Assembly (NCBI GenBank): GCA_044229975.1
Contig: JBGARZ010000009.1
Span: 155,947 to 219,946, forward strand
DNA length: 64,000 nucleotides
Direction: 5' to 3'
Source: Polyangiales bacterium
Lineage (GTDB): Bacteria > Myxococcota_A > Polyangia > Polyangiales > Ga0077539
The translations under genes and the position numbers were made by a program. This document shows, one piece after another, positions 41,444-61,186 of this stretch. Numbering within the stretch: the stretch's first letter is position 1; each line of letters opens with the position of its first letter. Under the pieces are notes generated by a model that was not told the origin of the DNA, ran no database searches, and worked only from the letters and a program-made list of their open reading frames with translations.

Positions 41444-44400
41444 TCAAGGAGAGTCGATGGAAACCGCGCGACAAGCGGTGGCGGGAGCCCAGGCGTCAGT
41501 AAGACTCAACGAGGGGAGATCGAGGGGGATGACATCCAGGGAGTCGCGGCAGATACGAAAATTGGTTCGACGAAGGACATCGGTGATGGCAGGAGCCACG
41601 GCGGCGGCGGGCGCTTCAGTCTGCCACAACCGCGCGAGATGATCATTTGCCCCCGTGACCAGAAGCCTCCCGTCGGGCGAAAAGGCCACCGATGTGACTT
41701 GCAGTGCATGGCCTCGGAAGGCGTGGAGTAGGCGCCAGGTACCCACTTCCCAGACCCGCGCCGTAAGATCGTCTGATCCGCTGACCAGTCTTGTTCCGTC
41801 GGGGGAAAAGGCGATCGCCGCGATCCCTCCGTTGTGCCCTCGCAATGCTTGGAGATGGCGTCCGCTCCCTGCTTCCCAGATGCGCACGGTAGAATCTCGA
41901 GAGCCTGTAACCAACCGCGTCCCATCGGGAGAAAATGTTGCTGCTGTTATCGAATCTGTGTGGCCGTGTAGGGAGTAACGCGGACGACCCGTGGCAGCGT
42001 CCCAGACCTCCGCAGTTTGAGCGGCGGATCCGGCAATCACTTGTTTCCCGTCCGGAGAGAATCCAATAGCGTAGACCCATGACTGAAGACCTTGGACGGA
42101 CCGCAGTAGACGCCATGTATCCGTTTCCCATATCTGCGCGTCACGACCGGAGAAGCACACGATCAGCCGCGATCCGTCGGGAGAAAGTGCCATCGCCGTT
42201 ATCGCACTACCATCTCCTTCCAGAACGTGGACCAAGCGACCGGTACCCGTCTCCCAGACTCGTACGGTGGAATCCCAAGACCCCGTCAACACACGCGTTC
42301 CGTCCGACGAAAATGCCATGGAACTAATCCTCCACGTATGTCCCTCAAGAGAGTGAAGGGGACGTCCAGTGGCGGCATCCCAGATTCGCGCAGTGTGGTC
42401 TTCGGAACCAGTGCCGATCCATCTTCCATTGGGCGAGAAAGCCACTGCCGTGACCGATTGGGAGTGTCCCTGAAAAGTGCGGAGCATGTGTTGGGGTCCC
42501 GCTTCCCAGATGCGCCCAGTGCGATCTTCGGAAGCCGTGGCAATTCGCCCCCCATCACGCGAGAATGCCACCGCAGTGATTGGCCCGGTATGCCCATGGA
42601 GGATATCGAGCAAGCGCCCACTGGTGTCCCATATTTTCACCAAACTTTCGTCATCCCCGGTAGCCAGTCGTTCTCCGTCTGGTGAAAAAGCGATGGCACG
42701 GACCGATCCATCATGTCGAAGATCACAAAGTGCGGAGCCATCGACTGCCCAGATGCGCGCGGCGTGAAAGCCGTGCTGAGTAGCTAGCAGGCGACCGTCT
42801 GGCGAAAATACGATCGCATCGGCACCGTTCATTTCCGTCATGAGAACGCGAAGCGAATGCCCGGTACTGACGTCCCAGATTCGCATGCTGTTATCCGTGG
42901 ATGTCGTAGCCAACAACGCTCCGCTGGGGGAGAAGGCTATCGCCTGGATGTGGTCGGTGTGCCCCTCAAGAAGATGGAGTAGGTGCCCGGTGGTCACGTC
43001 CCAGATTCGCGCGTTGGAGTCCGAACAGCCAGTGGCTATTCGTGTGCCATCAGGCGAGAATTTCATGCCACGAACCAAGTCATGATGGGTCAGAGAATTT
43101 ATTGCCTGTCCAGTTTCAGTTTCCCAAATCCGCACGCCATAATCAAATGACGCGGTGGCAAGCCTTGACCCGTCAGGCGAGAATGTCACATCATAAACCA
43201 CTCGATCAAACCCCGTAAGGGACCGAAGTAGACGTCCAGCATTAGCGTCCCAGATCCGAGCGGTAAAGTCATGAGACGCGGTGGCCAGTCTTGTTCCGTC
43301 AGATGAAAAAGCGATCGCAACGATTTTATCACGGTGCCCTTCCAGGGAGTGGAGCAATTGCCCTGTGTGTGCATCCCAGATTCGTGCCGTGTGATCCTCG
43401 GATGCGGTCACCAATCGTGTCCCGTCGGGCGAGAACTCCATCGCCGTGATGCCTGCGGTGTGCCCGCGAAGCACCCGAGCGATGGGGTGATCATCGCGCT
43501 CGATGACGTCCGCGTGAGCGGTGACGCCCCGCAAATCCAGCTTCCTCTCCTGTTGGGCCGCGGCGACCATCATCACCGCGGCTTCCGTCGGCGCGTGGTT
43601 CGCGCTCAGTTCTCGCGCCCGTGCCAACAGCAACTGGTACTTTCCAACCTCTCGTTCGCGCCGCGCTTTTCGCCACTGCACTCCGGCCACCGCTGCGAAC
43701 GTCGCAAGCGACGCCACCACGATGGCGATGGCGCCCACGCCGCGGCGCCACCTCCTCCGCTCCTTCGCCTGGCTACCCGCGACGAACGCCGCCTCGTCGG
43801 TCGTCAGCCTCGGCGTCGTGCGAGACCGCCACGCCACGATCTCTGCCAGCACTGTACCCTGCGACAGCAGATCCTCCCGCCGCCCGCTCCGTACCCACGC
43901 ACGCGTCGCCTCGGACACGCGTGCCCGCTGGGCGTGGCCTTCGACGTCCTCGACCCTCCAGCCCTGTAGCGTCTTCCACTGCGTCAGCAGCGCCTCGTGC
44001 GCCAGTTCGATCGTGGCCGCGCCTCTCGCGTCGACCGCCGACGTCAGCAGTCGCGCCTCGACCAGCGCGTCGATCACCGACTCCGCCACAGCCCTGTCAC
44101 TGACGCGCGCGAGTAGCTCCGCGCGCGGCATCGTCACCCGCGTGCCCTCTGATGACACCAGCGCCAGCATCACCTCCCGCGCCGCCGTCGCCCGCGGACC
44201 GGACTCGGCCCCGACCGTCTTGTCTGCATAGCGTGTCAGCGCGCCGACTACGCCCCCCAACGCCTTATAGGCCTCCGCCGTCAGTACTCGGTTCTCCTTG
44301 CAGTCTTCCCAGAGGAGGTCGGCCGTGAACTGCAACACGGGCAGCGTCGCCGGGCCGGTCTTGGCCTCGGCCACCATCCGCTCGACCAGCCCCTCATCGA

Positions 44401-45967
44401 ACCGCGCCCCGAAGCGCCGTGCCGGGGCCACGAGCGCCGCCGTCAGCGACTCGTCATCGGGCGTGCGAACGTTGACCATCGAGCGCATGTGCAGCGGCGC
44501 GAGTGCTGCCAGGTCGCCCAGCCGACCGAAGAAGTCCTCGCGCACGACGTAGACCACGCGCAGCGATCCCTTCGCGTCCACGGCCAGCGCCGCCAGTGCC
44601 TCGGCAAAACGCGCGCTCGCCTCGGGTGACGCACCCATGGTGAACAGCTCCTCGCCCTGGTCGACCACCACGACGACGCCGCGGTCTCGCGCCTGCGCCC
44701 ACGCGGCCACCGCCCCCGCCAACGCGACGGGTGTCTCCGGCGCACCCCCGTCGTCGAATCCGTCGAGCGCGCGCCGCAGCGCCGCCAGCAGCGCTCCCCA
44801 TGGGTCTTGCGAAGGGCGGCACAAGACCATCGACGTAAGCGGCCCCGCGGTCCGATACGCCTCGCGCACCGCGAGCCCTCGACGCTCCAGCGCCGGGCCG
44901 ACCCCCGCTTCCAGGAGGGAGGTCTTTCCGCTGCCGCTCGGTCCGAGTACGGTCACGAACGCTGTCTCGCGAATGCAGTGGGTCAGTTGATCCACCAGCT
45001 CCTCGCGCCCGAAGAAGAGCTCGGCGTCTGCGCGATGGAAGGCCTGCAGTCCGCGATAGGGCCGGTGCAGGATGGCGCCGCTCTGCGACTCCGCCGCGAC
45101 ATTGCTGACCGTCAGTCGCTCGTGCAGCCTCGGCCACACGGCGGGCTCAGAGTATTCGTCGCCCGAGGGGAGCGACAGATAGGTACCCGCGTCCTTCTTC
45201 CCGCCTTCGAGGAAGAACACCGCCAGCACCACGCTGTCGGTCGTGACGGCCCGCACCCGGACCACCGGGTCCAGCGTGACCAGCAACCGCCCGGCGGCGT
45301 CGACGAGGACCGCTTGCCCGCTCGGAAGGGCCTGACCCGCCTCCGCCAGGTCGAGGCGTCGCGACTGACCGTTGTAGGCAGTGATGCCTTTCAACCAGCG
45401 CGCCGACCGACTCTTCCCGGTTGGCACCACTAGGCGCACGGGCTCGATGAGGGGCATGAGCGCCGTGAGAACACGCTGCATCGCTGGGACGGTGCGCCCG
45501 GTGAGCGCCAGCACCTGCGCAAGTTCGGCCTTGAAGGGGTGAGCGGTCTCGTTGCGGAGCGCTACCAGGGCGTCGAGGTCATCAACCGCGGTGGAGCGCG
45601 AGTCGTGGTAAAGCCGAACCAGCTCGGGGAACGGATGGGCGATGGGGTCATGCCGCCAGGGACGGAGCAGCTCACGCGCCAGCTCGTGCCAACCTCCGCC
45701 TGTGAGGTGGCTCGATGAGAGGGTTTGCAGCAGCGCGCGCACCCTCGCCGGGTCGCCTCCCGGCCCGGCACCGCGCTCGATGCGAACGGAGAGGGCGAGG
45801 GCGGCCAGGAAGCGTTGCACCGTGAAGAAGACATTGAGCGTAGCCAGTAGGTATTCGTGAGGGTTCTCTGCCCCTTCGGCCCGCCAGAGCGCGTCTGCGA
45901 TGGGCGAGGGCCACGTGGACGTGATGATGTCGACGAGGCCAGTGTCGAGACGAGCGGGGTTGGACAT
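41444..45967 (-). CDS. STAND P-loop NTPase with an N-terminal HEPN-like (Rx4H) domain and about 14 C-terminal WD40 repeats
   Basis: The ATG at 45967 lies 7 nt after AAGGAG. PYRGLQAFHRADAELFFGRE...VLGPSGSGKTSLL is the Walker A region. hhhhD(Q)GEE is the Walker B region. A TM segment is present. About 14 repeats of about 42 aa follow, each of the GH...SPDG...ASxDxTARIWD type. The N-terminal 330 aa are paralogous to the N-terminus of the 51232 protein and include LVALRNETAH. Confidence 0.85.
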   Translation of the reverse strand: MSNPARLDTGLVDIITSTWPSPIADALWRAEGAENPHEYLLATLNVFFTVQRFLAALALSVRIERGAGPGGDPARVRALLQTLSSSHLTGGGWHELARELLRPWRHDPIAHPFPELVRLYHDSRSTAVDDLDALVALRNETAHPFKAELAQVLALTGRTVPAMQRVLTALMPLIEPVRLVVPTGKSRSARWLKGITAYNGQSRRLDLAEAGQALPSGQAVLVDAAGRLLVTLDPVVRVRAVTTDSVVLAVFFLEGGKKDAGTYLSLPSGDEYSEPAVWPRLHERLTVSNVAAESQSGAILHRPYRGLQAFHRADAELFFGREELVDQLTHCIRETAFVTVLGPSGSGKTSLLEAGVGPALERRGLAVREAYRTAGPLTSMVLCRPSQDPWGALLAALRRALDGFDDGGAPETPVALAGAVAAWAQARDRGVVVVVDQGEELFTMGASPEASARFAEALAALAVDAKGSLRVVYVVREDFFGRLGDLAALAPLHMRSMVNVRTPDDESLTAALVAPARRFGARFDEGLVERMVAEAKTGPATLPVLQFTADLLWEDCKENRVLTAEAYKALGGVVGALTRYADKTVGAESGPRATAAREVMLALVSSEGTRVTMPRAELLARVSDRAVAESVIDALVEARLLTSAVDARGAATIELAHEALLTQWKTLQGWRVEDVEGHAQRARVSEATRAWVRSGRREDLLSQGTVLAEIVAWRSRTTPRLTTDEAAFVAGSQAKERRRWRRGVGAIAIVVASLATFAAVAGVQWRKARREREVGKYQLLLARARELSANHAPTEAAVMMVAAAQQERKLDLRGVTAHADVIERDDHPIARVLRGHTAGITAMEFSPDGTRLVTASEDHTARIWDAHTGQLLHSLEGHRDKIVAIAFSSDGTRLATASHDFTARIWDANAGRLLRSLTGFDRVVYDVTFSPDGSRLATASFDYGVRIWETETGQAINSLTHHDLVRGMKFSPDGTRIATGCSDSNARIWDVTTGHLLHLLEGHTDHIQAIAFSPSGALLATTSTDNSMRIWDVSTGHSLRVLMTEMNGADAIVFSPDGRLLATQHGFHAARIWAVDGSALCDLRHDGSVRAIAFSPDGERLATGDDESLVKIWDTSGRLLDILHGHTGPITAVAFSRDGGRIATASEDRTGRIWEAGPQHMLRTFQGHSQSVTAVAFSPNGRWIGTGSEDHTARIWDAATGRPLHSLEGHTWRISSMAFSSDGTRVLTGSWDSTVRVWETGTGRLVHVLEGDGSAITAMALSPDGSRLIVCFSGRDAQIWETDTWRLLRSVQGLQSWVYAIGFSPDGKQVIAGSAAQTAEVWDAATGRPRYSLHGHTDSITAATFSPDGTRLVTGSRDSTVRIWEAGSGRHLQALRGHNGGIAAIAFSPDGTRLVSGSDDLTARVWEVGTWRLLHAFRGHALQVTSVAFSPDGRLLVTGANDHLARLWQTEAPAAAVAPAITDVLRRTNFRICRDSLDVIPLDLPSLSLTDAWAPATACRAVSIDSP

Positions 45968-46123
45968 CTGCACTCCTTGAGAAGCCTGCGTCGCGGAGGG
46001 TAGACGGCTTCGACGACGGATCGCGGTGGATTGCGCCGCATTCACGACCTCGCACCGCAGCTCGTCAGGTTGGCCCCCGAGAGGTGCGTCTACGCATCGA
46101 CCCCCCAATCGGAGGAAAACCCA

Positions 46124-46777
46124 ATGGCCCCGCACCGCTCCAACGTCATCCACCTACACGACCGCCCCGCCGAGAGCGCGGAGCCCACGACCCGCTCCTC
46201 GGCTCCCGCCCCAAGGAAGAACGTGACATGGCTGGGTGTGGGCCCGGTCGCTCTCTCGGCGCCGACCCCTCGCGCGGCCGCGACGCCTCCTCCGGTGCCC
46301 CCGCCCCGGTCGAAAGTCGGGGCGCGTCCCGTGTCGCCTCCGCCCGCGACCACGACAGCCCGTCCTGACCCCAAGGCGGCGCCCCCCCGGGCGGCGCCGC
46401 CGCGCGGCCCGGTGAAGGTTCAGCAGTCACCCACCGGGTCGCTGATCATCACCAGCTCCGACGGGACGGGGCGCATCGTGGTGATCCGACCGCCTCCCAT
46501 CGAGGCGCCGACACTGCGTCGCGAGTCCTCTGTCGAAGCGCCGACGCTGCGCCGCGAGTCCCCCGTCGAGGCGCCGACGCTGCGCCGGGCTCCGTCCAAG
46601 CGCGCGCGCGTCGACCATGGGTTCGGGTCGCCGTTTGCGCCCCTGCCAGACCAGCCCCGTGCGGTCCCGGTCGAGCCGCCCAACCGCGCGATGCTCGCCC
46701 TCCTGGCGGCGATCATCGCCCTCCTGACGACACTCGTCGTGCTCACGATAGTGGTGCTGTTCGGAGGCCTCCGATGA
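46124..46777 (+). CDS. Proline-rich tail-anchored membrane protein carrying 33 bp tandem repeats
   Basis: The ATG at 46124 lies 7 nt after GGAGGA. The protein is Pro/Ala-rich and low-complexity. The C-terminal TM helix reads MLALLAAIIALLTTLVVLTIVVLFGGL. Three repeats of (V/I)EAPTLRRES. Confidence 0.5.
   Translation: MAPHRSNVIHLHDRPAESAEPTTRSSAPAPRKNVTWLGVGPVALSAPTPRAAATPPPVPPPRSKVGARPVSPPPATTTARPDPKAAPPRAAPPRGPVKVQQSPTGSLIITSSDGTGRIVVIRPPPIEAPTLRRESSVEAPTLRRESPVEAPTLRRAPSKRARVDHGFGSPFAPLPDQPRAVPVEPPNRAMLALLAAIIALLTTLVVLTIVVLFGGLR
46497..46595. repeat. Three imperfect 33 bp tandem repeats
   Basis: tcgaggcgccgacactgcgtcgcgagtcctctg, then tcgaagcgccgacgctgcgccgcgagtcccccg, then tcgaggcgccgacgctgcgccgggctccg. 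Confidence 0.75.
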
Positions 46778-49653: not shown

Positions 49654-51189
49654 ATGTCACAACTCGATCCCGTCCTCCTCCGCGATACCCGTGCGTACCT
49701 CCTGCTTCGTCTCGGCCGCTGTGCCGAGGTGGATCGCTGCATGGAGCGCCTCGTCAACGCTGCCACCCAGCTGCCCTCGCAGGTCGACCCGGCCGACAGC
49801 CGACAGCGTTGGTTCCACCGCGCTCGTCGGATGTCGGCGGGATTCGGAGAGATCACACGCAAGTTGGTCGACGACCTCCCCTGGGTTCCGCTGCCCGAGG
49901 GGGTCGAGGCTCTTGCTGCGACGCTCCGGCGCGAGCTCACCCCCATTGCCCGTGAGGTGTTGGCGCTGAGGTTTTCACTGGGCTTCGGCGAGCCGTCGAT
50001 CGCCGATCTGATCAACCAGTCGGTCGCGGAGGTCGAGCTCACGTTGGGCGCGGCGATCGGCGTGGCGCGACTCACGATCGGGAGCTTCCACGCGCCGCTC
50101 GGGCTGCTGTTGGGGGCGGTCTTCCGCCTCGACCCGGACCGGGTTCCCTCAATCGGTGACCAGTCGATCGCCGCGGTGGGAGAGGTGATCGACGGTCGAT
50201 ACCGCATAGAGGGCCTGCTCGGTCGCGGCGCCTCGGCGCAGGTCTTCCTGGCCTCCGATCTGCAAATCCGGGGACATCAGGTCGCCCTCAAGCTCATGCG
50301 ACAACCCGTGAGCGATGCGATGGTCGCCGACGCGATACGGCGAGAGTTGGAGATCCTGGCGAGCCTCTGGCATCCGTCGGTGGTGCAGTTGAGGGGGAAC
50401 GGACAACACCGCGGGCGTATCTACCTGACGATGCCGTTTCTCCACGGAGAGACGCTCGCGAATCGGATCGCGCGCCACCCGGCAGGTCTGGGCCGCGCCG
50501 AGGCGCAGCGCATCTTCGTCGCGCTCGCCGGCGCTCTTTCGGCCATCCACGGCGTCGGCGTCCGACACCAGGACCTAAAGCCGCAGAACATCTATCTCGC
50601 GACGATCCCGGGAAGCCTGGAGGAGCATCCGTTGATCCTCGACCTCGGTGTCGCTGCGCGTCACGACGAGCTCGTCGCCGCGGGGACGCCTCCGTACATG
50701 GCACCGGAGGTCGCGCAGGACTTCCTGGCTTCAACCTACGCCGGGGACGCGGCGCGAGTGAGTGAGAAGGCGGACATCTACTCGCTGGCCTCGTGCCTGG
50801 TCGAGGCGCTCGCCCCAGACATCTTCGTTGGACTCGTCGGCGCCGGCGCCTCCCCCGACGCGCTCTTCGAGCGGCGCGCGTCGGGCGTGCTCCCGCGCTG
50901 GACCGACCACCGCCTGTCCGACCTGGCGTCGTCGCTGAGCCGCTGGATGGCGGCCGCGCCTGAGGCTCGGCCGGACGCGGTCGTGTTCGCGCGGGAGCTG
51001 TCCGTCCTCACGGCGCACCCGGGGCGACGCGCGGCCCGGAGGTGGTTCGCGCGGCGGGTGCGCGGCCCGTCCGCAGCGGTCGCAGGCGCGGTAGGGGATT
51101 GGTGGGGCCGCGTGGTTCCAGGCCCTCTGGGGGCTTCGCCTGGTAGCCATCCGTCGACGCCTGAGGCGTCGACGTCAACAGTTGTGTAG
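49654..51189 (+). CDS. Ser/Thr protein kinase with an N-terminal sigma-70 region-4-like HTH
   Basis: N-terminus TPIAREVLALRFSLGFGEPSIADLINQSVAEVELTLGAA resembles sigma region 4. The kinase domain has GRGASAQVF, VALK, HQDLKPQN, DLG, APE and DIYSLA. Confidence 0.85.
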   Translation: MSQLDPVLLRDTRAYLLLRLGRCAEVDRCMERLVNAATQLPSQVDPADSRQRWFHRARRMSAGFGEITRKLVDDLPWVPLPEGVEALAATLRRELTPIAREVLALRFSLGFGEPSIADLINQSVAEVELTLGAAIGVARLTIGSFHAPLGLLLGAVFRLDPDRVPSIGDQSIAAVGEVIDGRYRIEGLLGRGASAQVFLASDLQIRGHQVALKLMRQPVSDAMVADAIRRELEILASLWHPSVVQLRGNGQHRGRIYLTMPFLHGETLANRIARHPAGLGRAEAQRIFVALAGALSAIHGVGVRHQDLKPQNIYLATIPGSLEEHPLILDLGVAARHDELVAAGTPPYMAPEVAQDFLASTYAGDAARVSEKADIYSLASCLVEALAPDIFVGLVGAGASPDALFERRASGVLPRWTDHRLSDLASSLSRWMAAAPEARPDAVVFARELSVLTAHPGRRAARRWFARRVRGPSAAVAGAVGDWWGRVVPGPLGASPGSHPSTPEASTSTVV

Positions 51190-51231: not shown

Positions 51232-54200
51232 GTGATCGATACTGACGTGAGCTCGTTCGAGGCGGTGTTGAGACGAGCGCGGGCGGAGTTTCCGGTGCCG
51301 ATCGCCGATGCGGTGGTCGAATACGAGGGCACACGAGATCCACACGAGCGGATGCTCAAGCTGGTGGAGTTGTTCCGGGCGGCGCTTCGAATGGTGGCCA
51401 CGTGCGCGCTCGCAGCAAGGCTGAGCGTGGGACCTGGGCCGAAGGGGGAAGACGAGCGTCGAGCCGTTGCACTCCTTGAGGAGCTACGACGCCGATCGTT
51501 GACAGACGGCCAGTGGATCGAGCTGACGCGAGAGCTTTTGAGGCCTTGGCGGCTCGCGGCATTGGACCATCCGCTGCCTGAGCTGGTGCACGGATTCGAT
51601 GCGCGGGGTGGTCGCATGGCGCTGTGCTTCGAGACGTTGGTAGCGCTCCGCAATGAGGTACTGCACGGTCCGCGACTCAAGGGCCCCCCACGCCCCATGG
51701 AGGAGATCGTGGGACACCTCATACCCGCACTGGAGGAGAGCCTCGTACTGCTCGCGCCTGTCTGGGCGCGGGTACGGCTGGTCGTGGTGCTCGCGCAACG
51801 TAGCGCGAGCGGTGTACCGCTCGCATGGGAGCTCGTTGGGCAGACGCCGCCGCGCGGCCGTTGGCGCACGATCACGATTCCAGGGACCGAGAGCGTCGAG
51901 GCAGGCGCCGCGATACTGGTCAATGGATCGGGCGCGATGGTTCTCGCGATGAGCGTGGCGCTGGTGGTGCGGCGACCCAGCCCTGGAGCGGTAGAGGAGA
52001 CCTTCTTCCTGGACGGTGGCGAGAAGGGCGAGGCGCGGTACATGGCGCTGCCATCGCCCGCGGTGCTGATGGTGGCCGGTGCATGGGCACAGTTCCGACT
52101 GTCGATGGTGCCAGAGCCTGAAGTGAGCGCGAGCGATAGGGCAGTTCCTGATCGGCCGTACCGGGGACTCGAGAGCTTCGGACCGGAACATGCTGTGCTC
52201 TTCGTGGGCCGGGAGACCCTGATTGAGGCCCTGGCCAATCGCGTTCGGCGGTATGGCCTTGTAACCGTCACCGGGCCGAGCGGCGCTGGGAAGACGTCAC
52301 TGCTTCGGGCAGGCATTGGACCCGAGTTGGCACGTCGCAATCGTCAGCCTGCGCGCGGCGCCCGGTCCCGCAATGGCGATGTCGGGTTGGATTACCATAT
52401 GGTATATGTGCGCCCTGGGGTGAACCCTTGGGGAAGCCTACTGCGTGCGTTGGAACGCGAGTTGACAGACTGGAGAAGTCCGGACGCGGCAGTGCACGAA
52501 GCCGCGACAGGGCTGGCCGCGTCGCTTCGCACGTACGCGCGCGAGCGACGGTGCCGGGTGGTGCTGGCGCTCGACCAGGCGGAGGAGTTGTTCACGTTGA
52601 GAGCGGACATGGAACAGCGCGCGATGTGGGGCGCGCTGCTGATGGGCCTCGGCGAGGACGACGAAGGGCCGACGCGGGTCGTGCTGTCGCTACGTGAGGA
52701 CTGGATCTCGCTGATGGCAACGCTGCCGCACGTAGGTGCGCTGGTGGGGCGTCAGGTCGAGGTGGTGAACCGACCCGACCGGGAGGCGCTAATCCGGGTC
52801 CTGGTAGAACCAGCAGAGCGCTTCGGAGCGCGCTACGAGGAGGGCCTGGTCGACACGATGGTCGACGAGGTGGGAGAGACTCCAGCCGCGCTGGCCTTGC
52901 TACAGTTCACGGCCGATCGATTGTGGGAGATCGGGCATGACGATCGACGGTTGACGCGAGAGGAGTACAAGGCCATCGGCGGAGTCAAGGGCTCGCTGGG
53001 ACGACACGCCGATGAAGAGCTGGCAAGGATGACGACGAGTGAACAGCGCACGGCGCGGGAGCTATTGATTGGAATGGTGACAGCGGCGTGGACGCGATCT
53101 GCGCGGCTGGAGGAGGAGTTGATCGAGGCGGTATCGCGGAAGGACGCGCAGGCGGTTCTGGAGAAGTTGACGGCGGCGCGGCTGGTGACGCGGCAGGACA
53201 ACCCAGCGACGGTGGAGATCGTGCACGAGGCGCTGCTCACGCACTGGCCGCGAATGCAGGCGTGGCGGGCGGAGGACGAGGAGGGAGTGGTCTGGCGGGC
53301 GCGACTGCGGGAGGCCGTGCGGGACTGGAATCGAAGCGGGAATGCGAAGGCGTGGTTGTGGGGCGAAGATGTGTTGGCTGGCTTGGCGCTCTGGGAGGGT
53401 GAGCGGGCCCAGATTTACGGAGCGGACGAGCGCCGATTCATCGAAGCGAGCTGGCGGAAGGTGCGCCAGGCGAACCAACGGCTCTGGATGATGGTCGCCG
53501 GCGTGATGGCGGTGCTTGCGGGAATCAGCGCGTTCGCCACAGTGCAGTGGCGGAAGGCGCGGAGCCAGGGAAAAGTAGCAAGTCAGCGAGAGGGGGAGGC
53601 GCGTCGAGCAGAGAGGGGGATGGAGTACCGCTCGTTGCTCGCGAGTGCCCGAAGGCTGGAACTGGACGGGAACAATGACAAGGCGCTCGCCATGTGGCTG
53701 GCGGTGCTGGATCGAGAGACAGCATTGGAAGTCAACGCCCACGACGGACTGGAACGGCTGCTCCTGTGGCGTGACCTTGCCAACAACGGCAATGGCACAT
53801 ACTTGCTCCAAGGGCACCAAGGTGAGGTGTCCTCGACGACGTTCTCGCCCGACGGTCGGCGCGTCGTCACCGCGTCCAGCGATCAGACTGCCCGGGTGTG
53901 GGAGGTCGAGACCGGGCGATTGCTGGCTACCCTCCAAGGACATAGAGACATTGTGCACTCGGCGACGTTCTCGCCCGATGGACGGCGCGTCGTCACCGCG
54001 TCCAGTGATCAGACCGCCCGGGTGTGGGAGGTCGAGACCGGGCGATTGCTGGCTATCCTCCAAGGGCATAGAGACATTGTGCGCTCGGCGACGTTTTCGC
54101 CCGACGGACAGCACGTCGTCACTGCGTCCGGCGATCGAACCGCCCGGGTGTGGGAGGCTGGGAGTGGACGCCTGCTTACCACCCTCCAGGGGCATCAAGG

Positions 54201-56073
54201 CTCCGTTGTGTCAGCGGTGTTCTCGCCCGACAGCCAGCGCATCGTCTCCGCGTCAACGGATCGCACGGCGAGGATATGGGACGCTGAGAACGGGCGATTG
54301 CTCACCACCCTCCAAGGACACCAGGCAGAGGTATCCGCCGCAACATTCTCGCCCAACGGGCAAAGGGTTGCTACCGCATCTCGCGATCGCACGGCGAGGA
54401 TATGGGACGTCGAAAACGGACGACTGATCGCCACTCTCCAGGGGCACCAAGCCAGGGTATCCTCTGCAGCGTTCTCACCCAACGGACGACGCCTCGTGAC
54501 CGCTTCTGGCGATCAAACCGCAGGGGTGTGGGAAGTTGAGAGCGGACGATTGCTCACAGCTTTTCAAGGGCACCAAGGGCCGGTATTCTCTGCGACGTTC
54601 TCGTCCGATGGACAACGAGTCGCAACCGCTTCTGACGATCAAACCGCGCGGGTGTGGGAGGTCGAGAGCGGGCGATTGCTTGCCACCCTTAGGGGGCACC
54701 AAGGATCGGTATTCTCCGCAACATTCTCGCCCGAGGGACGACGCGTCGCAACCGCTTCCCGCGATCAAACCGCACGGGTGTGGGAGGTCGAGAGCGGGCG
54801 ATTGCTCACGACGCTCCAAGGGCATCCACAGAGAATGAGTTTTGCGCACTTTTCGCCCGATGGCCAACGAATCGCCGCCGTGTATGGCGATCTTACGGCG
54901 CGGGTCTGGGAAGCTGGCACCGGCCAATTGCTCTATGCTCTCCAAGGGAATCAAGGCGAGATGCTCTCCGCGACGTTCTCGCGGAATAGTCGGTGGATCG
55001 TTACCACCTCTCGGGACACCATCGCACGGGTGTGGGAGGCCAGAAGCGGACAGCTACTTGCTACTCTTCGAGGAGGTACAGAGATCATACACTCGGCGGC
55101 GTTCTCGCCCGACGGTCGATGGATCGTCACCACGTCGAGCGATTGTGCGGCGAGAGTCTGGGAAACCGAGAGCGGTCAACTGGTCGCTACACTCCAAGGA
55201 CACCTGAACTGGGTCAGTTCCGCGGCGTTTTCGCCAGACGGCCAACGGGTTGTCACCGCCTCAATCGATCGCACGACAAGGATATGGAATGCCATGGACG
55301 GTGTTCAGATTGCCGTGCTTGAAGGGCATCAAGATGGGGTGACATCCGCGGCGTATTCGCCAGACGGTCGGAGGGTCGTGACTGCGTCAAACGATCACAC
55401 GGCAAGGGTTTGGGGGGTCGAAGGCGGGCGCCTCCCGGTCACTATGCGGGGACATGTGGGACCAGTGCTCTCCGCAATGTTCTCACCCACTGGGCGAACC
55501 ATCGCTACCCAGGGCCTCAATGACACCGTACGAGTGTGGGACGCTGACAGTGGACAGACGCTCACTACACTTGCTGCATCAGCCAGTGAGATAAGCTCCT
55601 CCTCGTTCTCGACGGATGGGCAGCGAATCGTCACGGTGTCTGCCGAAGACGGCGCTGCAGTTGTCTGGGGAACCAGAGGTGGGCGTCGACTGTTTACGTT
55701 CCAAAGAGGTCCTGGGAGAGTGAACTCCGCCGCGTTTTCGCCAGATGGACGGCGGGTCGTCACCGCATCTTCGGATGGGACTGCGAATGTGTGGGATGCC
55801 GTGGTTCTCACCCCTCCCTTGCTTGCTCGCTGGTTCTTCAGTCGAACCAACTTTCGTGTCTGCCGCAACTCCCTTGACGTCATCGCCGTCGACGTCCCCT
55901 CTCTCCCCAGGATCCGCAACAGTCCCTGGGCGACCGATGAGGAGTGCCGCCGCACCGCGCTCTCTCCCAGTGTGCACACCCCCACCGCTCCGCCTGCTAC
56001 CGATGCAGGTCTACTCCCTGATGGAGCACTCTCTCGCCCGTCGCGCAGCACCACCCCGCCCGCCGTCCGTTGA
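51232..56073 (+). CDS. STAND P-loop NTPase with an N-terminal HEPN-like (Rx4H) domain and 14 C-terminal WD40 repeats; paralogue of the 41444..45967 protein
   Basis: GTG start 10 nt after GGAGA. PYRGLESFGPEHAVLFVGRE...VTGPSGAGKTSLL is the Walker A region. LDQAEE is the Walker B region. A TM segment is present. Fourteen repeats of 42 aa follow, each of the LQGHxxxVxSAxFSPDGxRVVTASxDxTARVWE type. The N-terminus contains LVALRNEVLH. Confidence 0.85.
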   Translation: MIDTDVSSFEAVLRRARAEFPVPIADAVVEYEGTRDPHERMLKLVELFRAALRMVATCALAARLSVGPGPKGEDERRAVALLEELRRRSLTDGQWIELTRELLRPWRLAALDHPLPELVHGFDARGGRMALCFETLVALRNEVLHGPRLKGPPRPMEEIVGHLIPALEESLVLLAPVWARVRLVVVLAQRSASGVPLAWELVGQTPPRGRWRTITIPGTESVEAGAAILVNGSGAMVLAMSVALVVRRPSPGAVEETFFLDGGEKGEARYMALPSPAVLMVAGAWAQFRLSMVPEPEVSASDRAVPDRPYRGLESFGPEHAVLFVGRETLIEALANRVRRYGLVTVTGPSGAGKTSLLRAGIGPELARRNRQPARGARSRNGDVGLDYHMVYVRPGVNPWGSLLRALERELTDWRSPDAAVHEAATGLAASLRTYARERRCRVVLALDQAEELFTLRADMEQRAMWGALLMGLGEDDEGPTRVVLSLREDWISLMATLPHVGALVGRQVEVVNRPDREALIRVLVEPAERFGARYEEGLVDTMVDEVGETPAALALLQFTADRLWEIGHDDRRLTREEYKAIGGVKGSLGRHADEELARMTTSEQRTARELLIGMVTAAWTRSARLEEELIEAVSRKDAQAVLEKLTAARLVTRQDNPATVEIVHEALLTHWPRMQAWRAEDEEGVVWRARLREAVRDWNRSGNAKAWLWGEDVLAGLALWEGERAQIYGADERRFIEASWRKVRQANQRLWMMVAGVMAVLAGISAFATVQWRKARSQGKVASQREGEARRAERGMEYRSLLASARRLELDGNNDKALAMWLAVLDRETALEVNAHDGLERLLLWRDLANNGNGTYLLQGHQGEVSSTTFSPDGRRVVTASSDQTARVWEVETGRLLATLQGHRDIVHSATFSPDGRRVVTASSDQTARVWEVETGRLLAILQGHRDIVRSATFSPDGQHVVTASGDRTARVWEAGSGRLLTTLQGHQGSVVSAVFSPDSQRIVSASTDRTARIWDAENGRLLTTLQGHQAEVSAATFSPNGQRVATASRDRTARIWDVENGRLIATLQGHQARVSSAAFSPNGRRLVTASGDQTAGVWEVESGRLLTAFQGHQGPVFSATFSSDGQRVATASDDQTARVWEVESGRLLATLRGHQGSVFSATFSPEGRRVATASRDQTARVWEVESGRLLTTLQGHPQRMSFAHFSPDGQRIAAVYGDLTARVWEAGTGQLLYALQGNQGEMLSATFSRNSRWIVTTSRDTIARVWEARSGQLLATLRGGTEIIHSAAFSPDGRWIVTTSSDCAARVWETESGQLVATLQGHLNWVSSAAFSPDGQRVVTASIDRTTRIWNAMDGVQIAVLEGHQDGVTSAAYSPDGRRVVTASNDHTARVWGVEGGRLPVTMRGHVGPVLSAMFSPTGRTIATQGLNDTVRVWDADSGQTLTTLAASASEISSSSFSTDGQRIVTVSAEDGAAVVWGTRGGRRLFTFQRGPGRVNSAAFSPDGRRVVTASSDGTANVWDAVVLTPPLLARWFFSRTNFRVCRNSLDVIAVDVPSLPRIRNSPWATDEECRRTALSPSVHTPTAPPATDAGLLPDGALSRPSRSTTPPAVR
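53808..54183. repeat. Three near-identical 126 bp tandem WD40 repeat units inside the 51232 gene
   Basis: Units at 53808, 53932 and 54058 are more than 95% identical over their last ~95 nt. They diverge mainly in a roughly 20 nt patch encoding HQGEVSST, HRDIVHSA and HRDIVRSA. Confidence 0.8.
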
Positions 56074-56131: not shown

Positions 56132-57850
56132 ATGAGGGAACCGATGCCACGCCCATCCGCTGCTCCCCCGGCGTCAACCTTCCTCGCACAGCGCTGCGTC
56201 GCCGGGCGCTACGACGTCGTCGGCGCCCTCGACTCGGCGTCGAACCGGGGACGCCTCTTCACCTTCGCTGGCCGAGATCGCGAGACTGGTGACGGCGTGC
56301 TGATCTGTCAGCTTAAGCCGCTCTTCGCGCGCGACCCCAACGTGCGACGCGAACTGGCCGAAGGCGTGGCGAAGTCTGCGCTGCTCTCGCACCCTTCGAT
56401 TCGCGAGGTGCTCGCCTCGGAAATCGGGGACGGCACGGCGTTCTACGTCACCCGCTCTCTCGACGGGCAGACGGTGTCGCGGCGTCTGCGAGGCGGCGCG
56501 ATTTTCACGGAGCGGGAAGTGGTGCTCACCGCCAAGTCCCTGCTGGGAGCCCTGGTGCACGCTCACGAGCGCGGTGTGGTCTTCGGTGGCATCAAGCCAT
56601 CGAACGTCCTGCTGCGTCCCTCTCGCTGCGAAGGAATGCTGGTGGACCTGCCCCGTCCGCCCCTGGACGTGGCCGGCCTCACCCACGCCGCAGCGTATCT
56701 CGAGATCCCGCAAGATTGTGCGCCGGAGGTCCTCGCGACAGGCCGCTTCGACGCGCGTGCGGACCTCTACGGAGTCGGCGTGGTGATGTGGCAGATGGCG
56801 ACCGGTACCCTGGCATTTCGAGACCATCCGAACCTCGCCGACGTCCTGTCACTCGTGATCGAGGAGGGACTCCCCCCAGCCGAATCGGTGAACCCTGACC
56901 TCCATCCCGCTTTGGCCCGGTTGATCGCCCGGGCGACGGCACGCGATCCCGAGGAGCGCTTCGTCTCGGCAGCGGCCATGTTCACTGCGCTCGGCAAGCT
57001 CCCCACGCGAAACGCACCTCTGGTGTCGCCGCAGCGCCTCGACGCGCTCGTGCGCTCCTCGTTTCCGCAGCCCATCGCGCGCACCTATGCTTCCATCGAC
57101 GAGCGGGCAGGGGAGGACGAGCGCCTCGGGCGTCTCATCGACACCACTCACGTCGCCGTCCAGCTCGTCGCGTCACTGGTCATCATGGACCGACACCGCC
57201 AGGGTCTCCCCCCGCTACCCCTCACGAAGACGCCCGTCCCCTTCGCCCGACCCGCGCTCGGGCACTGGGTGTCGGTCGTGCGGGCGAACGCACTCGACCC
57301 CACCGGCGTGCTCCCGCAATTGCACCGCGCGCTGCTGGAAGACGACCAGCACGCGCACCTCCTACGGACGGCGATGGATCGTCTCGTCGAGGTGCGCAAC
57401 CAGTGCCGACACGGGAGTTCCCTGCCCGCCGCCGGATCGCGGCGTCTGCGGACCGATGCGAAGCCGCACCTGCTGACGATGCTCCGCCAGCTGCTCCTCC
57501 TGCGCGACCACACCCTCGTCGTCGTGGACGACATCGACTTTGCCGACGAGGGCTTCGAGTATGTGGTCCGCCCGCTGCGCGGCATGGTCGCGTCGCAACT
57601 GCAGGTCCGAGTCCGTGCGGCCGAGCGCTTCAAGCAGCACCACCTCTGCTTCGCGGATCACGACTTGGTGCCGCGAGTCGACCTGTACCCCCTCGTTCGC
57701 TGGAAGGACTGCCCGCGTTGCGACACGCAGGAGGTCTTCTTCTACGAGTCGGCGGGGGACGAGCGCGTGCACTACGTCTCCTACGACCACGGTCACTCCA
57801 TGAGCGACCCCGACATCCTGCCCGCTTTCCGGACGCTCGGGCTGCTCTGA
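56132..57850 (+). CDS. Pseudokinase (catalytic HRD replaced by FGG) with a C-terminal HEPN-like (Rx4H) domain; RNase L/Ire1-like architecture
   Basis: Kinase-fold landmarks are retained (VLICQLK, HPSIREV, GIKPSNVLL, CAPEVL, DLYGVGVVMWQMATG). The Gly-loop is degenerate. HRD is replaced by VFGGIKPSN and DFG by VDLPRP. The C-terminal 250 aa are homologous to the STAND N-terminal domains and include LVEVRNQCRH. Confidence 0.7.
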   Translation: MREPMPRPSAAPPASTFLAQRCVAGRYDVVGALDSASNRGRLFTFAGRDRETGDGVLICQLKPLFARDPNVRRELAEGVAKSALLSHPSIREVLASEIGDGTAFYVTRSLDGQTVSRRLRGGAIFTEREVVLTAKSLLGALVHAHERGVVFGGIKPSNVLLRPSRCEGMLVDLPRPPLDVAGLTHAAAYLEIPQDCAPEVLATGRFDARADLYGVGVVMWQMATGTLAFRDHPNLADVLSLVIEEGLPPAESVNPDLHPALARLIARATARDPEERFVSAAAMFTALGKLPTRNAPLVSPQRLDALVRSSFPQPIARTYASIDERAGEDERLGRLIDTTHVAVQLVASLVIMDRHRQGLPPLPLTKTPVPFARPALGHWVSVVRANALDPTGVLPQLHRALLEDDQHAHLLRTAMDRLVEVRNQCRHGSSLPAAGSRRLRTDAKPHLLTMLRQLLLLRDHTLVVVDDIDFADEGFEYVVRPLRGMVASQLQVRVRAAERFKQHHLCFADHDLVPRVDLYPLVRWKDCPRCDTQEVFFYESAGDERVHYVSYDHGHSMSDPDILPAFRTLGLL

Positions 57851-57960: not shown

Positions 57961-58566
57961 ATGAACAAGATTCAGTACATCATCGCCCTCGTCCTCTCTC
58001 TCGGTGCGAGCGTGGTGCTCCCCACGACCACGTACGCCCAGGAGGCGCCAACCGACGAGGGGAGTCCGCAGGAGAACAGCGACGGTGTCTCCGAGGCCCT
58101 CGACCGCTTCGAATCGCGCCTGCGTGAGCTCGCGACCGAAGAGAACGCGCCCGAGGTCATCGCACGACTCGACGACGTCCCAACCGACACCGTGGTCGAT
58201 GAAGATCGATTCCGTGCCCTGATCAGGGAGTACACGGTGCGCTCTCTCCTGGCCTCGACCTCCGCCGCGACGGTCGGTGAGGACAACGTTGTGCCCATCC
58301 AGCAGACGCTCCAGCGCGCCGCCGCCGCGCACGGTGACCGCTTGGTGCGGGCGCTCACCAGGCTCCACGCGCAGCACGGTGACGCCTGCTACGAGCAGGC
58401 GCGCACCCTGATCGAAGACGCCGCAGATCCCGACGTCGAGGTCTCCAGCCTCGGCCAGCAGGTGATCGCGCTGTCCGAGGCGCTCCGGTCGGAGGATGAC
58501 CCGGACACCTCGGAGCGGGTGCTCCTCGAAGGGGTCCGGCTGTTGCGGAACGCGTCCGGGCGCTGA
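57961..58566 (+). CDS. Small secreted acidic protein (hypothetical)
   Basis: The ATG at 57961 follows GGAGT. Signal peptide MNKIQYIIALVLSLGASVVLPTTTYAQE. It is the C-terminal part of ORF 57403..58566. Confidence 0.5.
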   Translation: MNKIQYIIALVLSLGASVVLPTTTYAQEAPTDEGSPQENSDGVSEALDRFESRLRELATEENAPEVIARLDDVPTDTVVDEDRFRALIREYTVRSLLASTSAATVGEDNVVPIQQTLQRAAAAHGDRLVRALTRLHAQHGDACYEQARTLIEDAADPDVEVSSLGQQVIALSEALRSEDDPDTSERVLLEGVRLLRNASGR

Positions 58567-58846
58567 GACGCCCCCAATCCTCCAACGCGTCTGCAGTTCG
58601 TCTCGCGCCAGAAGGGGTTTCGACACGAACGGCAGGCGGATTGCGGGCAAGCAGAGACACTGGTACCTCTGTCGCGCGACGGCGGGGCTTAGCGCTCGGC
58701 GGACTCGGTACGAAACGGCAATCACCTGCACCACCGCCAACCACCATCCGCCAGCGGGCTGACGCGACAGTGTGTGGATGGGTCGTCACCGATCGACACG
58801 ATCCACGCGTCCCCGGCCGTTCTTTCCCCGACAGAAAGACTCTCGC

Positions 58847-59755
58847 ATGCAGCCCTTTGAGCTCATCAGACCAACCACGGGCAACTCTCTCCTGCCACCG
58901 GACAAGCCGATCGTACTATCGGCAGAGGACCCGATTCGCGGTGACCCTGCGTGCGTCCCCTATGTGCTCGATGCGTCCTTGGCCGTCGCGATCAACACGG
59001 CCATCGCCGTCGACCAGCCGTTGCTTGTCACAGGCGAGCCAGGCTGTGGCAAGACGACCCTCGCCTGGGCGATCGCCAGCCAACTCGGCACCACGGTCGA
59101 GGCCTTCCACGTGAAGTCCACTTCCACGGCGCGTGACCTGCTCTACAGCATGGACAATCTGCGCCGATTCCACGACGCGAACTCGAAGGTGGAACTCGCG
59201 GGTGAGCCGCGACACTACCTTCGGCTCGAAGCCCTCGGGCGGGCGTTTACCGCGGACGTCACCCGAGTCGTGCTCATCGACGAGATCGACAAGGCACCGC
59301 GCGATCTCCCCAACGACCTCCTCCGCGAGCTCGACGAGAAGGCCTTCACCATCGTGGAGACGGGAGAGGTGGTGCGGCAGCGGGTGCCTCAAGTGATCGT
59401 GATCACCAGCAACCGCGATCGGCAGCTGTCGGATGCGTTTCTGCGCCGCTGCGTCTACGCGCACATTCCCTTCCCGAGCCCGGAAGTCCTGGTCAAGGTC
59501 ATCGCGGCGCATGCGGGAGCACGGGGCGTGGGCGTCGATCTCGTCGACGCGGCCGTGCGGCGTTTTGGCGAGCTGCGCGACAGCGGGCTGGAAAAGAAGC
59601 CCGCGACGAGCGAACTCCTCGCGTGGGTGCTGGTGCTGCATCGACGAGGAACCACCGCGGCGTCGATCGAAGAGTGCCCGCTCGGTGCCCTGCCCGGACT
59701 CGAGCTGTTGGTGAAAACACCGGAGGACCTTCACCGGATCGTCGCGCAGGGGTGA
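58847..59755 (+). CDS. MoxR-family AAA+ ATPase
   Basis: Walker A reads LLVTGEPGCGKTTLAWA. Walker B reads VVLIDEIDKAPRDLPNDLLRELDE. Sensor motifs VIVITSNR and LSDAFLRRCVYAHIPFP are present. It is the internal ATG of ORF 58772..59755. Confidence 0.85.
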   Translation: MQPFELIRPTTGNSLLPPDKPIVLSAEDPIRGDPACVPYVLDASLAVAINTAIAVDQPLLVTGEPGCGKTTLAWAIASQLGTTVEAFHVKSTSTARDLLYSMDNLRRFHDANSKVELAGEPRHYLRLEALGRAFTADVTRVVLIDEIDKAPRDLPNDLLRELDEKAFTIVETGEVVRQRVPQVIVITSNRDRQLSDAFLRRCVYAHIPFPSPEVLVKVIAAHAGARGVGVDLVDAAVRRFGELRDSGLEKKPATSELLAWVLVLHRRGTTAASIEECPLGALPGLELLVKTPEDLHRIVAQG

Positions 59756-59785: not shown

Positions 59786-61186
59786 TTGAGCGCTCAACCA
59801 ATAGACGACCGCGAGGAGTTGCGGCGCTGGGTCACCAAGGTCGCGATCGCCCGCGCGGGCGGCGACCGGGACAACGTTGCGCGCTGTGTCTCGGCGCTAG
59901 CGGAGGGCGTCCTTCGTCTCGCGTTGAAACGACAGGTCCCTGAGCCCATCTACGACCGCGCGTTGCAGGCCGTGCTCAAGGGGAAACAACGCCGGCCGAC
60001 GCTGGGCGACTATGTGCAAGTCTATGCGATGTGCCAGCCAGACCCTTCCTGTCGCCTGCCGACGGTCGATCTGGGCCTCATCCGGCGGCTCCCGCTGGTA
60101 CGAAATGCGGGACAGCACTTTGGTCTATCCGAGCCGGAGAACCTGACCTCACCCGTCGAGGTCTACGTGGAGGCGATCCGGCCGCTGGCCCTGGCCATCG
60201 AGGTGTTCGACGACGAAGAACTCACGGCCCTGGAGCACGGCCCGACCGATCTCCCCGTCCGCCTCACGCTCGATCGGGTGCCACAGCGCGAAGAGCTTTC
60301 CGGGTTCCTTCGGGATGCGAGGGGGCGCGACCGGCGGCTGATCGCTCTTTGGCTCGAAGGCGAGACGCGACAGGGCGTTCGTACGTACTACGAACGAATC
60401 TGTCATGAACTCGCGGAACAGCGGATCACTATCGAGCAACAGATCGAAGGCGAGGATGGCAGCGCCGCCGGCCGTGGCGTCCGCTGGGCGAGGGGTCTGG
60501 CTGATCCGGCCTCGCGCCTGACGTCGCTGATCGAGTCCCTGATGCGTTCCCTCACGACAAGATTGCCGGGAGAGTCAAGGCTCCCTCCTCCGCCAGTCGA
60601 ACGGCTCTCCCTGCATGGAAAGCCGAACGCGCGTTGGGACGAGTGGCTGGATGGGCTGGCGGAGGTGTTGTGGAAGAAGGCTCGTCTCCGCCGGATGCTG
60701 GTGCGCCACGTCGTCGGTCCAGACGAGCGAATCCATCGTTCCGACGAGGCTGTCGTTGGCCGTTATCTGGAGCTCGTGTGGGGTCGCGTCGCGGTGCTCA
60801 TGCGCACGTCGAGGGGCTCGGACATCCGTGTCGTGCTCTCCTTCGAAGTGGAGCGTAGTCGTCTCATTCTGGGAGGGCCGCGTGGCCCGTGGCGCAGCGT
60901 GCTGCGAGCGCTCAGGCAGTGGTGGGAGCGGCGATCCCTGGCAGCGATGCGGGCGCGGCTCGAATCAACGCGCCTTGGCGAAGGCCCGTTGGCGGTAGCG
61001 CTGTCGCCACTCGCGGGCGTACCTGTCGATGCCATCACGAAGGAACTGCGAGATCGCGGCTTCCCCCGAAGTCGACTCGCCGAGACGGCGGCGGATCTCT
61101 GGTACGAGACCGACTGTGGGCGCTACGAGGAGTTGATCGAAAAGATCCCTGAGCGCCTGGACCGTGACGAGGACGAGGGGCGGTGA
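59786..61186 (+). CDS. Hypothetical protein (466 aa) with an N-terminal HEPN-like (Rx4H) domain
   Basis: The N-terminal 150 aa align with the STAND N-terminal domains and include LPLVRNAGQH. It lies between the MoxR ATPase gene and the VWA protein gene. The C-terminal part is of unknown function. Confidence 0.5.
   Translation: MSAQPIDDREELRRWVTKVAIARAGGDRDNVARCVSALAEGVLRLALKRQVPEPIYDRALQAVLKGKQRRPTLGDYVQVYAMCQPDPSCRLPTVDLGLIRRLPLVRNAGQHFGLSEPENLTSPVEVYVEAIRPLALAIEVFDDEELTALEHGPTDLPVRLTLDRVPQREELSGFLRDARGRDRRLIALWLEGETRQGVRTYYERICHELAEQRITIEQQIEGEDGSAAGRGVRWARGLADPASRLTSLIESLMRSLTTRLPGESRLPPPPVERLSLHGKPNARWDEWLDGLAEVLWKKARLRRMLVRHVVGPDERIHRSDEAVVGRYLELVWGRVAVLMRTSRGSDIRVVLSFEVERSRLILGGPRGPWRSVLRALRQWWERRSLAAMRARLESTRLGEGPLAVALSPLAGVPVDAITKELRDRGFPRSRLAETAADLWYETDCGRYEELIEKIPERLDRDEDEGR

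Follow-up and report, generated by a model that had tools for sequence, protein, structure and literature searches.

RNase L and Ire1 join an N-terminal kinase fold to a rigid C-terminal HEPN-fold domain with an Rx4H motif, and their output is regulated oligomerisation of the HEPN ribonuclease (RNase). RNase L, whose kinase is catalytically dead, keeps its nucleotide-binding motifs and binds ATP. In a census of HEPN domains, the KEN family was found to be eukaryote-only and fused to eukaryotic kinases (PMC3710099). Fusions of HEPN RNases to regulatory domains and STAND ATPases are well known (PMC3710099; PMC8195603; PMC13581612), and for the Swt1/Abi2/RiboL-PSP-type HEPN domains, fusions to STAND ATPases and zinc ribbons have been reported (PMC3710099). 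Recently, RAZR (PD-T7-4) was characterised as an RNase combining a zinc finger with a DUF4145 HEPN domain (PMC13017515). Here, we describe a gene of a Polyangiales bacterium (Myxococcota_A) that encodes a bacterial pseudokinase followed by a C-terminal module accepted as HEPN-like. The gene lies in a window of 64,000 nucleotides (nt), which is the whole stretch of DNA analysed (contig JBGARZ010000009.1 of assembly GCA_044229975.1, positions 155,947 to 219,946 of the forward strand).

We consider it probable, if some way from certain, that the encoded protein is a regulated two-part effector consisting of a pseudokinase half and an HEPN endoribonuclease half. A regulated HEPN endoribonuclease is the best reading of the module because it occupies output or effector positions and carries a conserved catalytic-type motif. 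The initial annotation had allowed that the gene could be an isolated pseudogene, a concern that can be set aside since the gene is conserved. Translation from an alternative start (M5) gives a protein of 568 amino acids (aa), P0001, of which an identical sequence is present in public assemblies; three full-length homologs align at 31-39% identity, and further cluster representatives also align. A scan of GTDB genomes with four full-length proteins found one full-length relative only, in a Planctomycetota metagenome-assembled genome; the source genome is absent from the GTDB representatives.

The N-terminal half matches the Pfam Pkinase model at aa 82-279 (E 2.7e-14), and PADLOC kinase models span aa 22-294. 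It is nearest to bacterial Hanks kinases of the PknB type, both by sequence and by structure; in a phmmer search of the PDB with the kinase half, PknB was the best match (2e-17), followed by StkP and PknA. The half was aligned with the active kinase K511 encoded nearby and with 24 module-fused kinase domains, and the alignment to K511 places FGG under HRD/HQD and xLP under DFG unambiguously. The HRD triplet is F151-G152-G153 in the target (nt 56582-56590), the catalytic Asp having been replaced by Gly. Most of the clade has FG[GN]xK, and three divergent variants (FDNLK, FGHIT and FGKLV) likewise lack the HRD Asp. Where the target has D172-L173-P174 at the DFG position, its homologs show G/A/T/M-L/F-P followed by [KR]PP, the two most divergent members having L/I. 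Neither the target nor its clade has a Gly-rich loop, and the beta3 position is K62 in the target and K or R across the clade. At the alphaC Glu column stands G78, a Gly that the four closest sequences share without exception, and E77 next to it varies among homologs. Collectively, the Gly-rich loop and the HRD Asp are missing in all of the approximately 12 alignable clade members, and the DFG Asp is not conserved.

The three full-length homologs and the cluster representatives share the motifs G[VI]xFG[NG]xK[PST]xN and x-L-P-[KR]-P-P, and the clade keeps the structural invariants of the fold, namely the APE Pro/Glu, the helix-F Asp and the helix-I Arg. A kinase fold with conserved loss of at least one of the beta3 Lys, HRD Asp and DFG Asp is the mark of a pseudokinase. 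Judged by its residues, the kinase half of the target is predicted to have lost phosphotransfer, and nucleotide binding has probably been lost too. As the inactivating changes are shared by the clade and the structural residues are invariant, the dead state points to selection and not to decay. The pseudokinase proposed in the initial annotation is therefore borne out, with the loss of catalytic residues conserved across the clade. The landmarks on which that proposal was built are in place at VLICQLK (K62), HPSIREV, VFGGIKPSN, DLP, APE and the helix-F segment DLYGVGVVMWQMATG; the alphaC Glu that it also listed is not, a Gly standing at that column.

A second clade has the same kinase-then-module order, and its kinases are dead by other changes (HRN, GFE). 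Based on these distinct modes of inactivation, FG[GN]/xLP versus HRN/GFE, the dead-kinase fusion seems to have arisen at least twice. Proteins in which the module comes first mostly have intact HRD, DFG, ALK and GxGxxG elements. Among P0182, P0183, P0192, P0228, P0241 and P0258 (module N-terminal) and P0168, a kinase that comes after the module is usually catalytically complete; P0183, with DRD instead of HRD and no APE, is the exception among the seven.

The C-terminal module was modelled with AlphaFold2 from a 24-sequence alignment, giving a predicted local distance difference test score (pLDDT) of 91.3 and a predicted template modelling score (pTM) of 0.90 for a helical domain and, C-terminal to it, an all-beta one. 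In the model, R422-N423-x3-H427 forms the end of helix 408-427, ahead of the loop leading to helix 433-453. This agrees with the placement of the Rx4-6H motif in HEPN domains, at helix 3's end and in the loop to helix 4, the Arg being followed by a polar residue (PMC3710099). HEPN proteins listed for the fold of the module include TTHA0636 (9.0), the HEPN toxin 8xdj (8.8), AF0298 (8.6), HI0074 (8.4), sacsin HEPN (8.1), Csm6 (8.0) and HepT (7.9), the figures being unlabelled, with LsoA and RnlA further down. Individual family members also gave sub-threshold Pfam matches to HEPN_Swt1 (9.6e-4), HEPN_RiboL-PSP (4.6e-3 and 0.24), HEPN_AbiU2 and HEPN_Apea. Four of these five matches (RiboL-PSP, AbiU2 and Apea, all in stand-alone members) could be mapped and are centred on the RN...H motif. 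The C-terminal domain, predicted to be HEPN-like in the initial annotation, is accepted as such from its modelled fold, the position of its motif and the sub-threshold profile matches, because fold and motif agree, though no curated profile passed. Foldseek searches of the PDB with the module returned nothing below E 0.08, the weak matches being ribosomal uL2-like barrels to the beta part; the beta subdomain itself had no significant Foldseek match.

The module appears to represent a new family, one that current Pfam, NCBIfam and PADLOC models all miss; it is marked by motifs of its own and by an obligatory beta/zinc subdomain of about 110 aa. Pfam at E <= 10 gave no match for the C-terminal 283 aa of the target, for the N-terminal domain of the STAND protein encoded upstream, or for the N-terminus of X466, a further protein of the window. 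NCBIfam models run on 24 family members returned nothing relevant, and PADLOC, which has no model for the module, recognised just the kinase, P-loop and WD40 parts of the window proteins. When the C-terminal 283 aa served as query, a word-indexed search found no homologs despite an identical protein in the database, which reflects the limited sensitivity of that tool. Exhaustive phmmer comparison with 1.84 billion cluster representatives (cut-off E <= 1e-3) retrieved 169 proteins, one of them a repeat artefact. The latter, P0125 (3173 aa, rank 6, E 7e-35), was rejected as a false positive because 24 identical 93-aa tandem repeats each add approximately 6 bits to its score.

The conserved unit is about 270 aa long. 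It is found at the C-terminus of proteins of approximately 440-760 aa, at the N-terminus of proteins of approximately 400 to 1700 aa and internally in some large proteins, and many module proteins are stand-alone (~290 aa). Across 113 family sequences, which are pairwise only about 20-25% identical, R422, N423, H427 and G428 of the LVEVRNQCRHG stretch (aa 418-428 of the target) are conserved in 98, 96, 99 and 85%, respectively, far above chance. Other near-invariant positions in these sequences are P312, P314 and A316 of [FY]PxPIA, G377 and W379 of RPSLGxW, G484 and P520. The beta subdomain contains C527-x2-C530 and H553-G-H555, with C527, C530 and H555 conserved in 93, 89 and 90%, and relatives have C-G-H where the target has H-G-H. 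This conserved C-x2-C ... [C/H]-G-H pattern suggests a zinc site, and the beta subdomain probably holds one of the Cys2-His2/Cys3-His type. The initial annotation had outlined a single Rx4H domain of 250 aa; its motif and its HEPN-like part stand, and the region is in fact two subdomains, HEPN and beta/zinc.

The described HEPN types share some of these features. The Swt1/Abi2/RiboL-PSP-type domains have the same R-N-x3-H type of motif, give the weak profile matches and have STAND, TPR and zinc-element partners in conflict systems or multicellular bacteria (PMC3710099). However, the module falls below the threshold of all their models and has its own [FY]PxPIA and RPSLGxW motifs and a beta subdomain, and kinase or pseudokinase fusions of this kind are not listed in that census (PMC3710099). 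RAZR similarly combines a divergent HEPN RNase and a zinc-binding domain in one polypeptide, with activity under the control of higher-order assembly (PMC13017515). It differs in its N-terminal Cys4 zinc ribbon, its Rx7H motif, the absence of a kinase and its activators, which are phage ring proteins (PMC13017515); the target has no DUF4145 match, and its putative zinc site is C-terminal.

Fusion partners of the module comprise protein kinase (21), Macro (7), REC (7), TPR (7), ORC/Cdc6-like ATPase (5), cyclic nucleotide (cNMP)-binding (4), squalene-cyclase-like (4), FHA (3), double zinc ribbon (3), GGDEF (2), CHASE2 (2), FGE-sulfatase (2) and SIR2 (1) domains. The module is mostly at the output position, following REC, cNMP-binding, FHA, Macro, CHASE2 and ORC/Cdc6-like ATPase domains. 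A hidden Markov model (HMM) of the family finds three copies in the window, that of the target and the N-termini of two proteins with an nSTAND1 nucleoside triphosphatase (NTPase) domain and WD40 repeats, in which the module takes the N-terminal effector position.

In the mechanism that we favour, the dead PknB-like kinase would be kept as a folded scaffold that serves as a sensor, docking or dimerisation surface, and the module, with its four-helix HEPN core and R-N-x3-H-G at the canonical catalytic position, would be packed rigidly on the kinase C-lobe. By analogy to characterised HEPN RNases, two modules would pair to form a composite, metal-independent endoribonuclease site. This pairing would be gated by the pseudokinase in the target, and by ligand-driven nSTAND1-WD40 oligomerisation in the two neighbouring STAND proteins. 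RNA would be cleaved, presumably with an outcome of the growth-arrest, abortive-infection or programmed-death type.

Several observations weigh against an RNase assignment. No HEPN Pfam model reaches its curated threshold for the target or its relatives, and the module profile run against all PDB sequences gave a chance-level match only (E 0.56). At a position where 84% of the family have Glu, the target clade has His or Gln. Both STAND copies of the module keep RN...H and have lost the CxxC...GH zinc ligands that are conserved in approximately 90% elsewhere in the family. Finally, the module also precedes active kinases, SIR2 and FGE-sulfatase-like domains and follows GGDEF in some proteins, and these further fusions leave some room for a sensor or adaptor role.

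As an adaptor, the module would be a non-catalytic, HEPN-like homotypic domain: the copy in the target would dock on that of the STAND protein and recruit the pseudokinase to its oligomer, and no RNA would be cut. We regard this as unlikely. A pure adaptor would not be expected to keep R, N and H nearly invariant at the canonical catalytic position in about 110 diverse sequences. Further, no second module lies within 10 kb of the pseudokinase-module gene in relatives, whose neighbours are variable, and many family members stand alone. The target module is also closer to other modules of the pseudokinase clade (38%) than to that of the adjacent STAND protein (17-25%).

A sensor role, to which we give a low probability, would make the module a ligand- or nucleotide-sensing input and its partners the outputs, with the dead kinase as a scaffold modulating K511. 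The fusions in which the module precedes active kinases, SIR2 and FGE-sulfatase-like domains or follows GGDEF fit such a role. Protein-kinase genes also occur near three of six gene contexts (K511 in the window, locus L001 and the P0002 contig), and a 4-nt overlap with a cyclase gene is seen in one relative. However, proximity is weak evidence in phyla as rich in kinase genes as these. In addition, the module follows classic input domains (REC, cNMP-binding, FHA, CHASE2), which is the usual place of outputs, it stands at the effector end in STAND proteins, and its conserved motif is the HEPN catalytic one.

A regulated HEPN effector is also what RNase L and Ire1 are, and the initial annotation had drawn that parallel. 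As far as design is concerned, the parallel is real. The full-length AlphaFold2 model has a pTM of 0.87, and the junction at aa 281-310 a pLDDT of 89-97; given the short ordered linker and the high pTM, the module is predicted to be a rigid extension of the kinase and not a tethered domain. It directly extends the kinase C-lobe, as in the KEN-type arrangement. The target thus shares with both eukaryotic proteins the N-terminal kinase fold, the rigid C-terminal HEPN-fold Rx4H domain and, by prediction, regulated oligomerisation of the HEPN RNase as output, and with RNase L a dead kinase. The differences are equally plain. By profile and by structure ranking alike, the HEPN half falls outside KEN; no Pfam model, Ribonuc_2-5A included, matches the C-terminal 283 aa at E <= 10. 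The target adds the beta/zinc subdomain and has no ankyrin or lumenal sensor domains, and its clade is without the nucleotide-binding motifs that RNase L retains.

That the target is a true homolog of RNase L/Ire1, through a bacterial ancestor or a transfer of the kinase-KEN unit, is very improbable. The shared domain order, the pseudokinase as in RNase L, the Rx4H motif and the rigid kinase-nuclease junction would suit homology. However, a structure search with the full-length model aligned no solved chain over more than 282 residues, RNase L and Ire1 were absent from the top 60, and there was no two-domain similarity to kinase-KEN structures. The kinase half is not of the nucleotide-competent Ire1/RNase L lineage either, being nearest to PknB, StkP and PknA with degenerate nucleotide motifs. 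A specific relationship is therefore not upheld, and the likeness is evidently convergent, with an independent origin from bacterial parts. Nucleotide-driven dimerisation, which the initial annotation had brought over from the eukaryotic proteins, is unlikely to transfer, as the Gly-rich loop and alphaC Glu are gone, the DFG Asp is not conserved and beta3 is K or R. The convergent pseudokinase-HEPN assembly is probably recurrent. No description of a bacterial pseudokinase-HEPN fusion was found in the searchable literature, whose coverage is incomplete, and the recurrent fusion of the module to bacterial pseudokinases, as a convergent counterpart of RNase L, appears to be new.

An active kinase with alternative catalytic residues is scarcely credible: the catalytic-loop K155 and N158 and the APE motif are conserved and atypical kinases with displaced catalytic residues exist, such as those of the WNK type, but four of five canonical elements (Gly-loop, alphaC Glu, HRD Asp and DFG Asp) are gone, the beta3 Lys is K or R, and the HRD and DFG replacements are non-acidic in nearly every clade member, a single one having a neighbouring Asp (FDNLK).

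If the module is an active RNase, it defines an HEPN-type family of approximately 168 cluster representatives at 50% identity, and with it a new effector class for annotating STAND/NLR-like and signalling proteins in Myxococcota, Planctomycetota and their relatives. The pseudokinase-then-HEPN design, so far thought to be a eukaryotic speciality, would have been built independently, probably twice, from PknB-like kinases. Such proteins would offer a tractable system in which to study how an HEPN RNase is gated by a dead kinase without nucleotide binding. Further, the range of partners would suggest that RNA cleavage is common in ordinary bacterial signal transduction, beyond phage defence.

The features of the locus are collected in Table 1. 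Genes of the window, which is chromosomal, include those for RelA/SpoT and GlyS; a promoter and terminator scan of its high-GC DNA was uninformative. GlyS shows 75% identity to a 'Deltaproteobacteria' metagenome-assembled genome and 59-62% to Polyangiales ones, which places the source among the uncultured Myxococcota, probably as a Polyangia-like member.

Table 1. Features of the pseudokinase-module locus; positions are those of the window.
Feature	Position (nt)	Strand	Details
Second paralog, 1569 aa: module, nSTAND1 and 12 WD40 repeats	41444..46153	-	module HMM E 2e-29; nSTAND1 E 3e-93
Module of the second paralog	45113-45958
RNETAH motif of the second paralog	45539-45556
K511, intact-looking Ser/Thr kinase	49654..51189	+	HQDLKPQN, DLG, VALK; Pfam Pkinase E 6e-29
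Upstream neighbour: module, nSTAND1 NTPase and 16 WD40 repeats	51232..56073	+	Pfam nSTAND1 E 3e-92; module HMM E 2e-27
Module of the upstream neighbour	51238-52095		aa ~3-288
RNEVLHG motif of the upstream neighbour	51649-51669
Target gene, pseudokinase-HEPN/zinc module protein	56132..57850	+	572 aa; from the open reading frame list; alternative start 56144 (M5)
Hanks-type protein-kinase fold, catalytically dead	56195..57001	+	aa ~22-290
Catalytic-loop remnant FGGIKPSN	56582..56605	+	within VFGGIKPSN, aa 150-158; coordinates checked by translation
DFG-equivalent DLP (D172-L173-P174)	56645..56653	+	Asp not conserved
HEPN-like helical subdomain	57029..57508	+	aa 300-459; family motifs [FY]PxPIA, RPSLGxW
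RNQCRHG, Rx4H motif in which a polar Asn follows Arg; predicted active-site motif of the RNase	57395..57415	+	conservation, helix position
All-beta subdomain, probable zinc site	57512..57847	+	aa 461-572
C527-x2-C530	57710-57721
H553-G-H555	57788-57796

The initial annotation had noted the STAND-WD40 protein directly upstream as a carrier of the same domain, which is confirmed by BLASTP between the two modules (E 2e-4) and by the family HMM. The gap between this gene (STAND1613) and the target is 58 nt, and K511 ends 43 nt upstream of the STAND gene, on account of which K511, STAND1613 and the target may be co-transcribed. The second paralog lies approximately 10 kb from the target locus, and the two STAND proteins are 38% identical to each other over 1570 aa. 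Both combine an nSTAND1 NTPase, a repeat sensor and an N-terminal effector, as do the Avs-type STAND/NLR-like antiviral ATPases. The target, in contrast, has no NTPase, and a defence role of its neighbours is putative; PADLOC matched their P-loop and WD40 parts only. K511 also contains a weak sigma-70 region-4-like helix-turn-helix (aa 93-131, E 0.11).

The adjacency to a STAND gene, which the initial annotation had found striking, is not conserved in the five other contexts available. No conserved neighbourhood emerged from the six contexts (the window and these five), all of which differ; relatives adjoin VWA, AAA-FtsH-like, kinase, cyclase, phosphatase or housekeeping genes.

It is nonetheless conceivable, if quite improbable, that the pseudokinase protein and its module-nSTAND1-WD40 neighbour act as a single machine, a bacterial NLR-pseudokinase-RNase resistosome. 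The dead kinase would then be a decoy or adaptor that an invader protein or K511 modifies or binds, wired to the STAND oligomer through a heterodimer of the two HEPN modules. The composite RNase site would form only if sensor and decoy both report. Plant ZAR1, which works with pseudokinase adaptors, offers a comparison. If true, such a machine would represent an independent invention of RNase L logic in a multicellular-type bacterium.

Among the relatives, the pseudokinase-module gene of P0124 (contig JGI 3300047160) overlaps an upstream gene encoding TPR and adenylate/guanylate cyclase domains by 4 nt, a hint that its translation is coupled to that of a nucleotide-signal generator. A 198-aa gene comes after the P0124 gene. 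Directly downstream of the target, positions 57961-58566 (+) encode an acidic protein of 201 aa with an N-terminal signal-peptide-like segment, of which no homolog is found beside the relatives. On the P0003 contig (L001, 309-11032), the relative is located among a VWA_2 protein, a 720-aa kinase and a 1117-aa AAA/REC/FtsH-peptidase protein, a gene set reminiscent of the vWA-MoxR/FtsH conflict systems (PMC7159879).

Two further proteins of the window deserve mention. X466 (59786-61186, +; 466 aa) has no Pfam match and is encoded downstream of an AAA_5/MoxR-like ATPase (58772-59755). It contains RPTLGDY (aa 69-75) and RNAGQH (aa 114-119), at a spacing of about 45 aa like that of RPSLGxW and RNxxxH in the module. 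As a fourth copy of the module it was rejected as unproven (hhalign probability 1.7%); judging by these motifs, it may be a diverged, beta-less HEPN protein paired with the AAA+ ATPase, which is likewise unproven. The other, a 637-aa protein (47193-49106, +), has weak TPR matches and a weakly Lon-protease-like region at aa ~158-247 (GASLGLA ... K), with Lon-type matches to PDB 1xhk (E 0.027) and PADLOC SAVED_LON (E 0.06). It may be a Lon-like protease-TPR protein, encoded upstream of the kinase-STAND-pseudokinase gene run.

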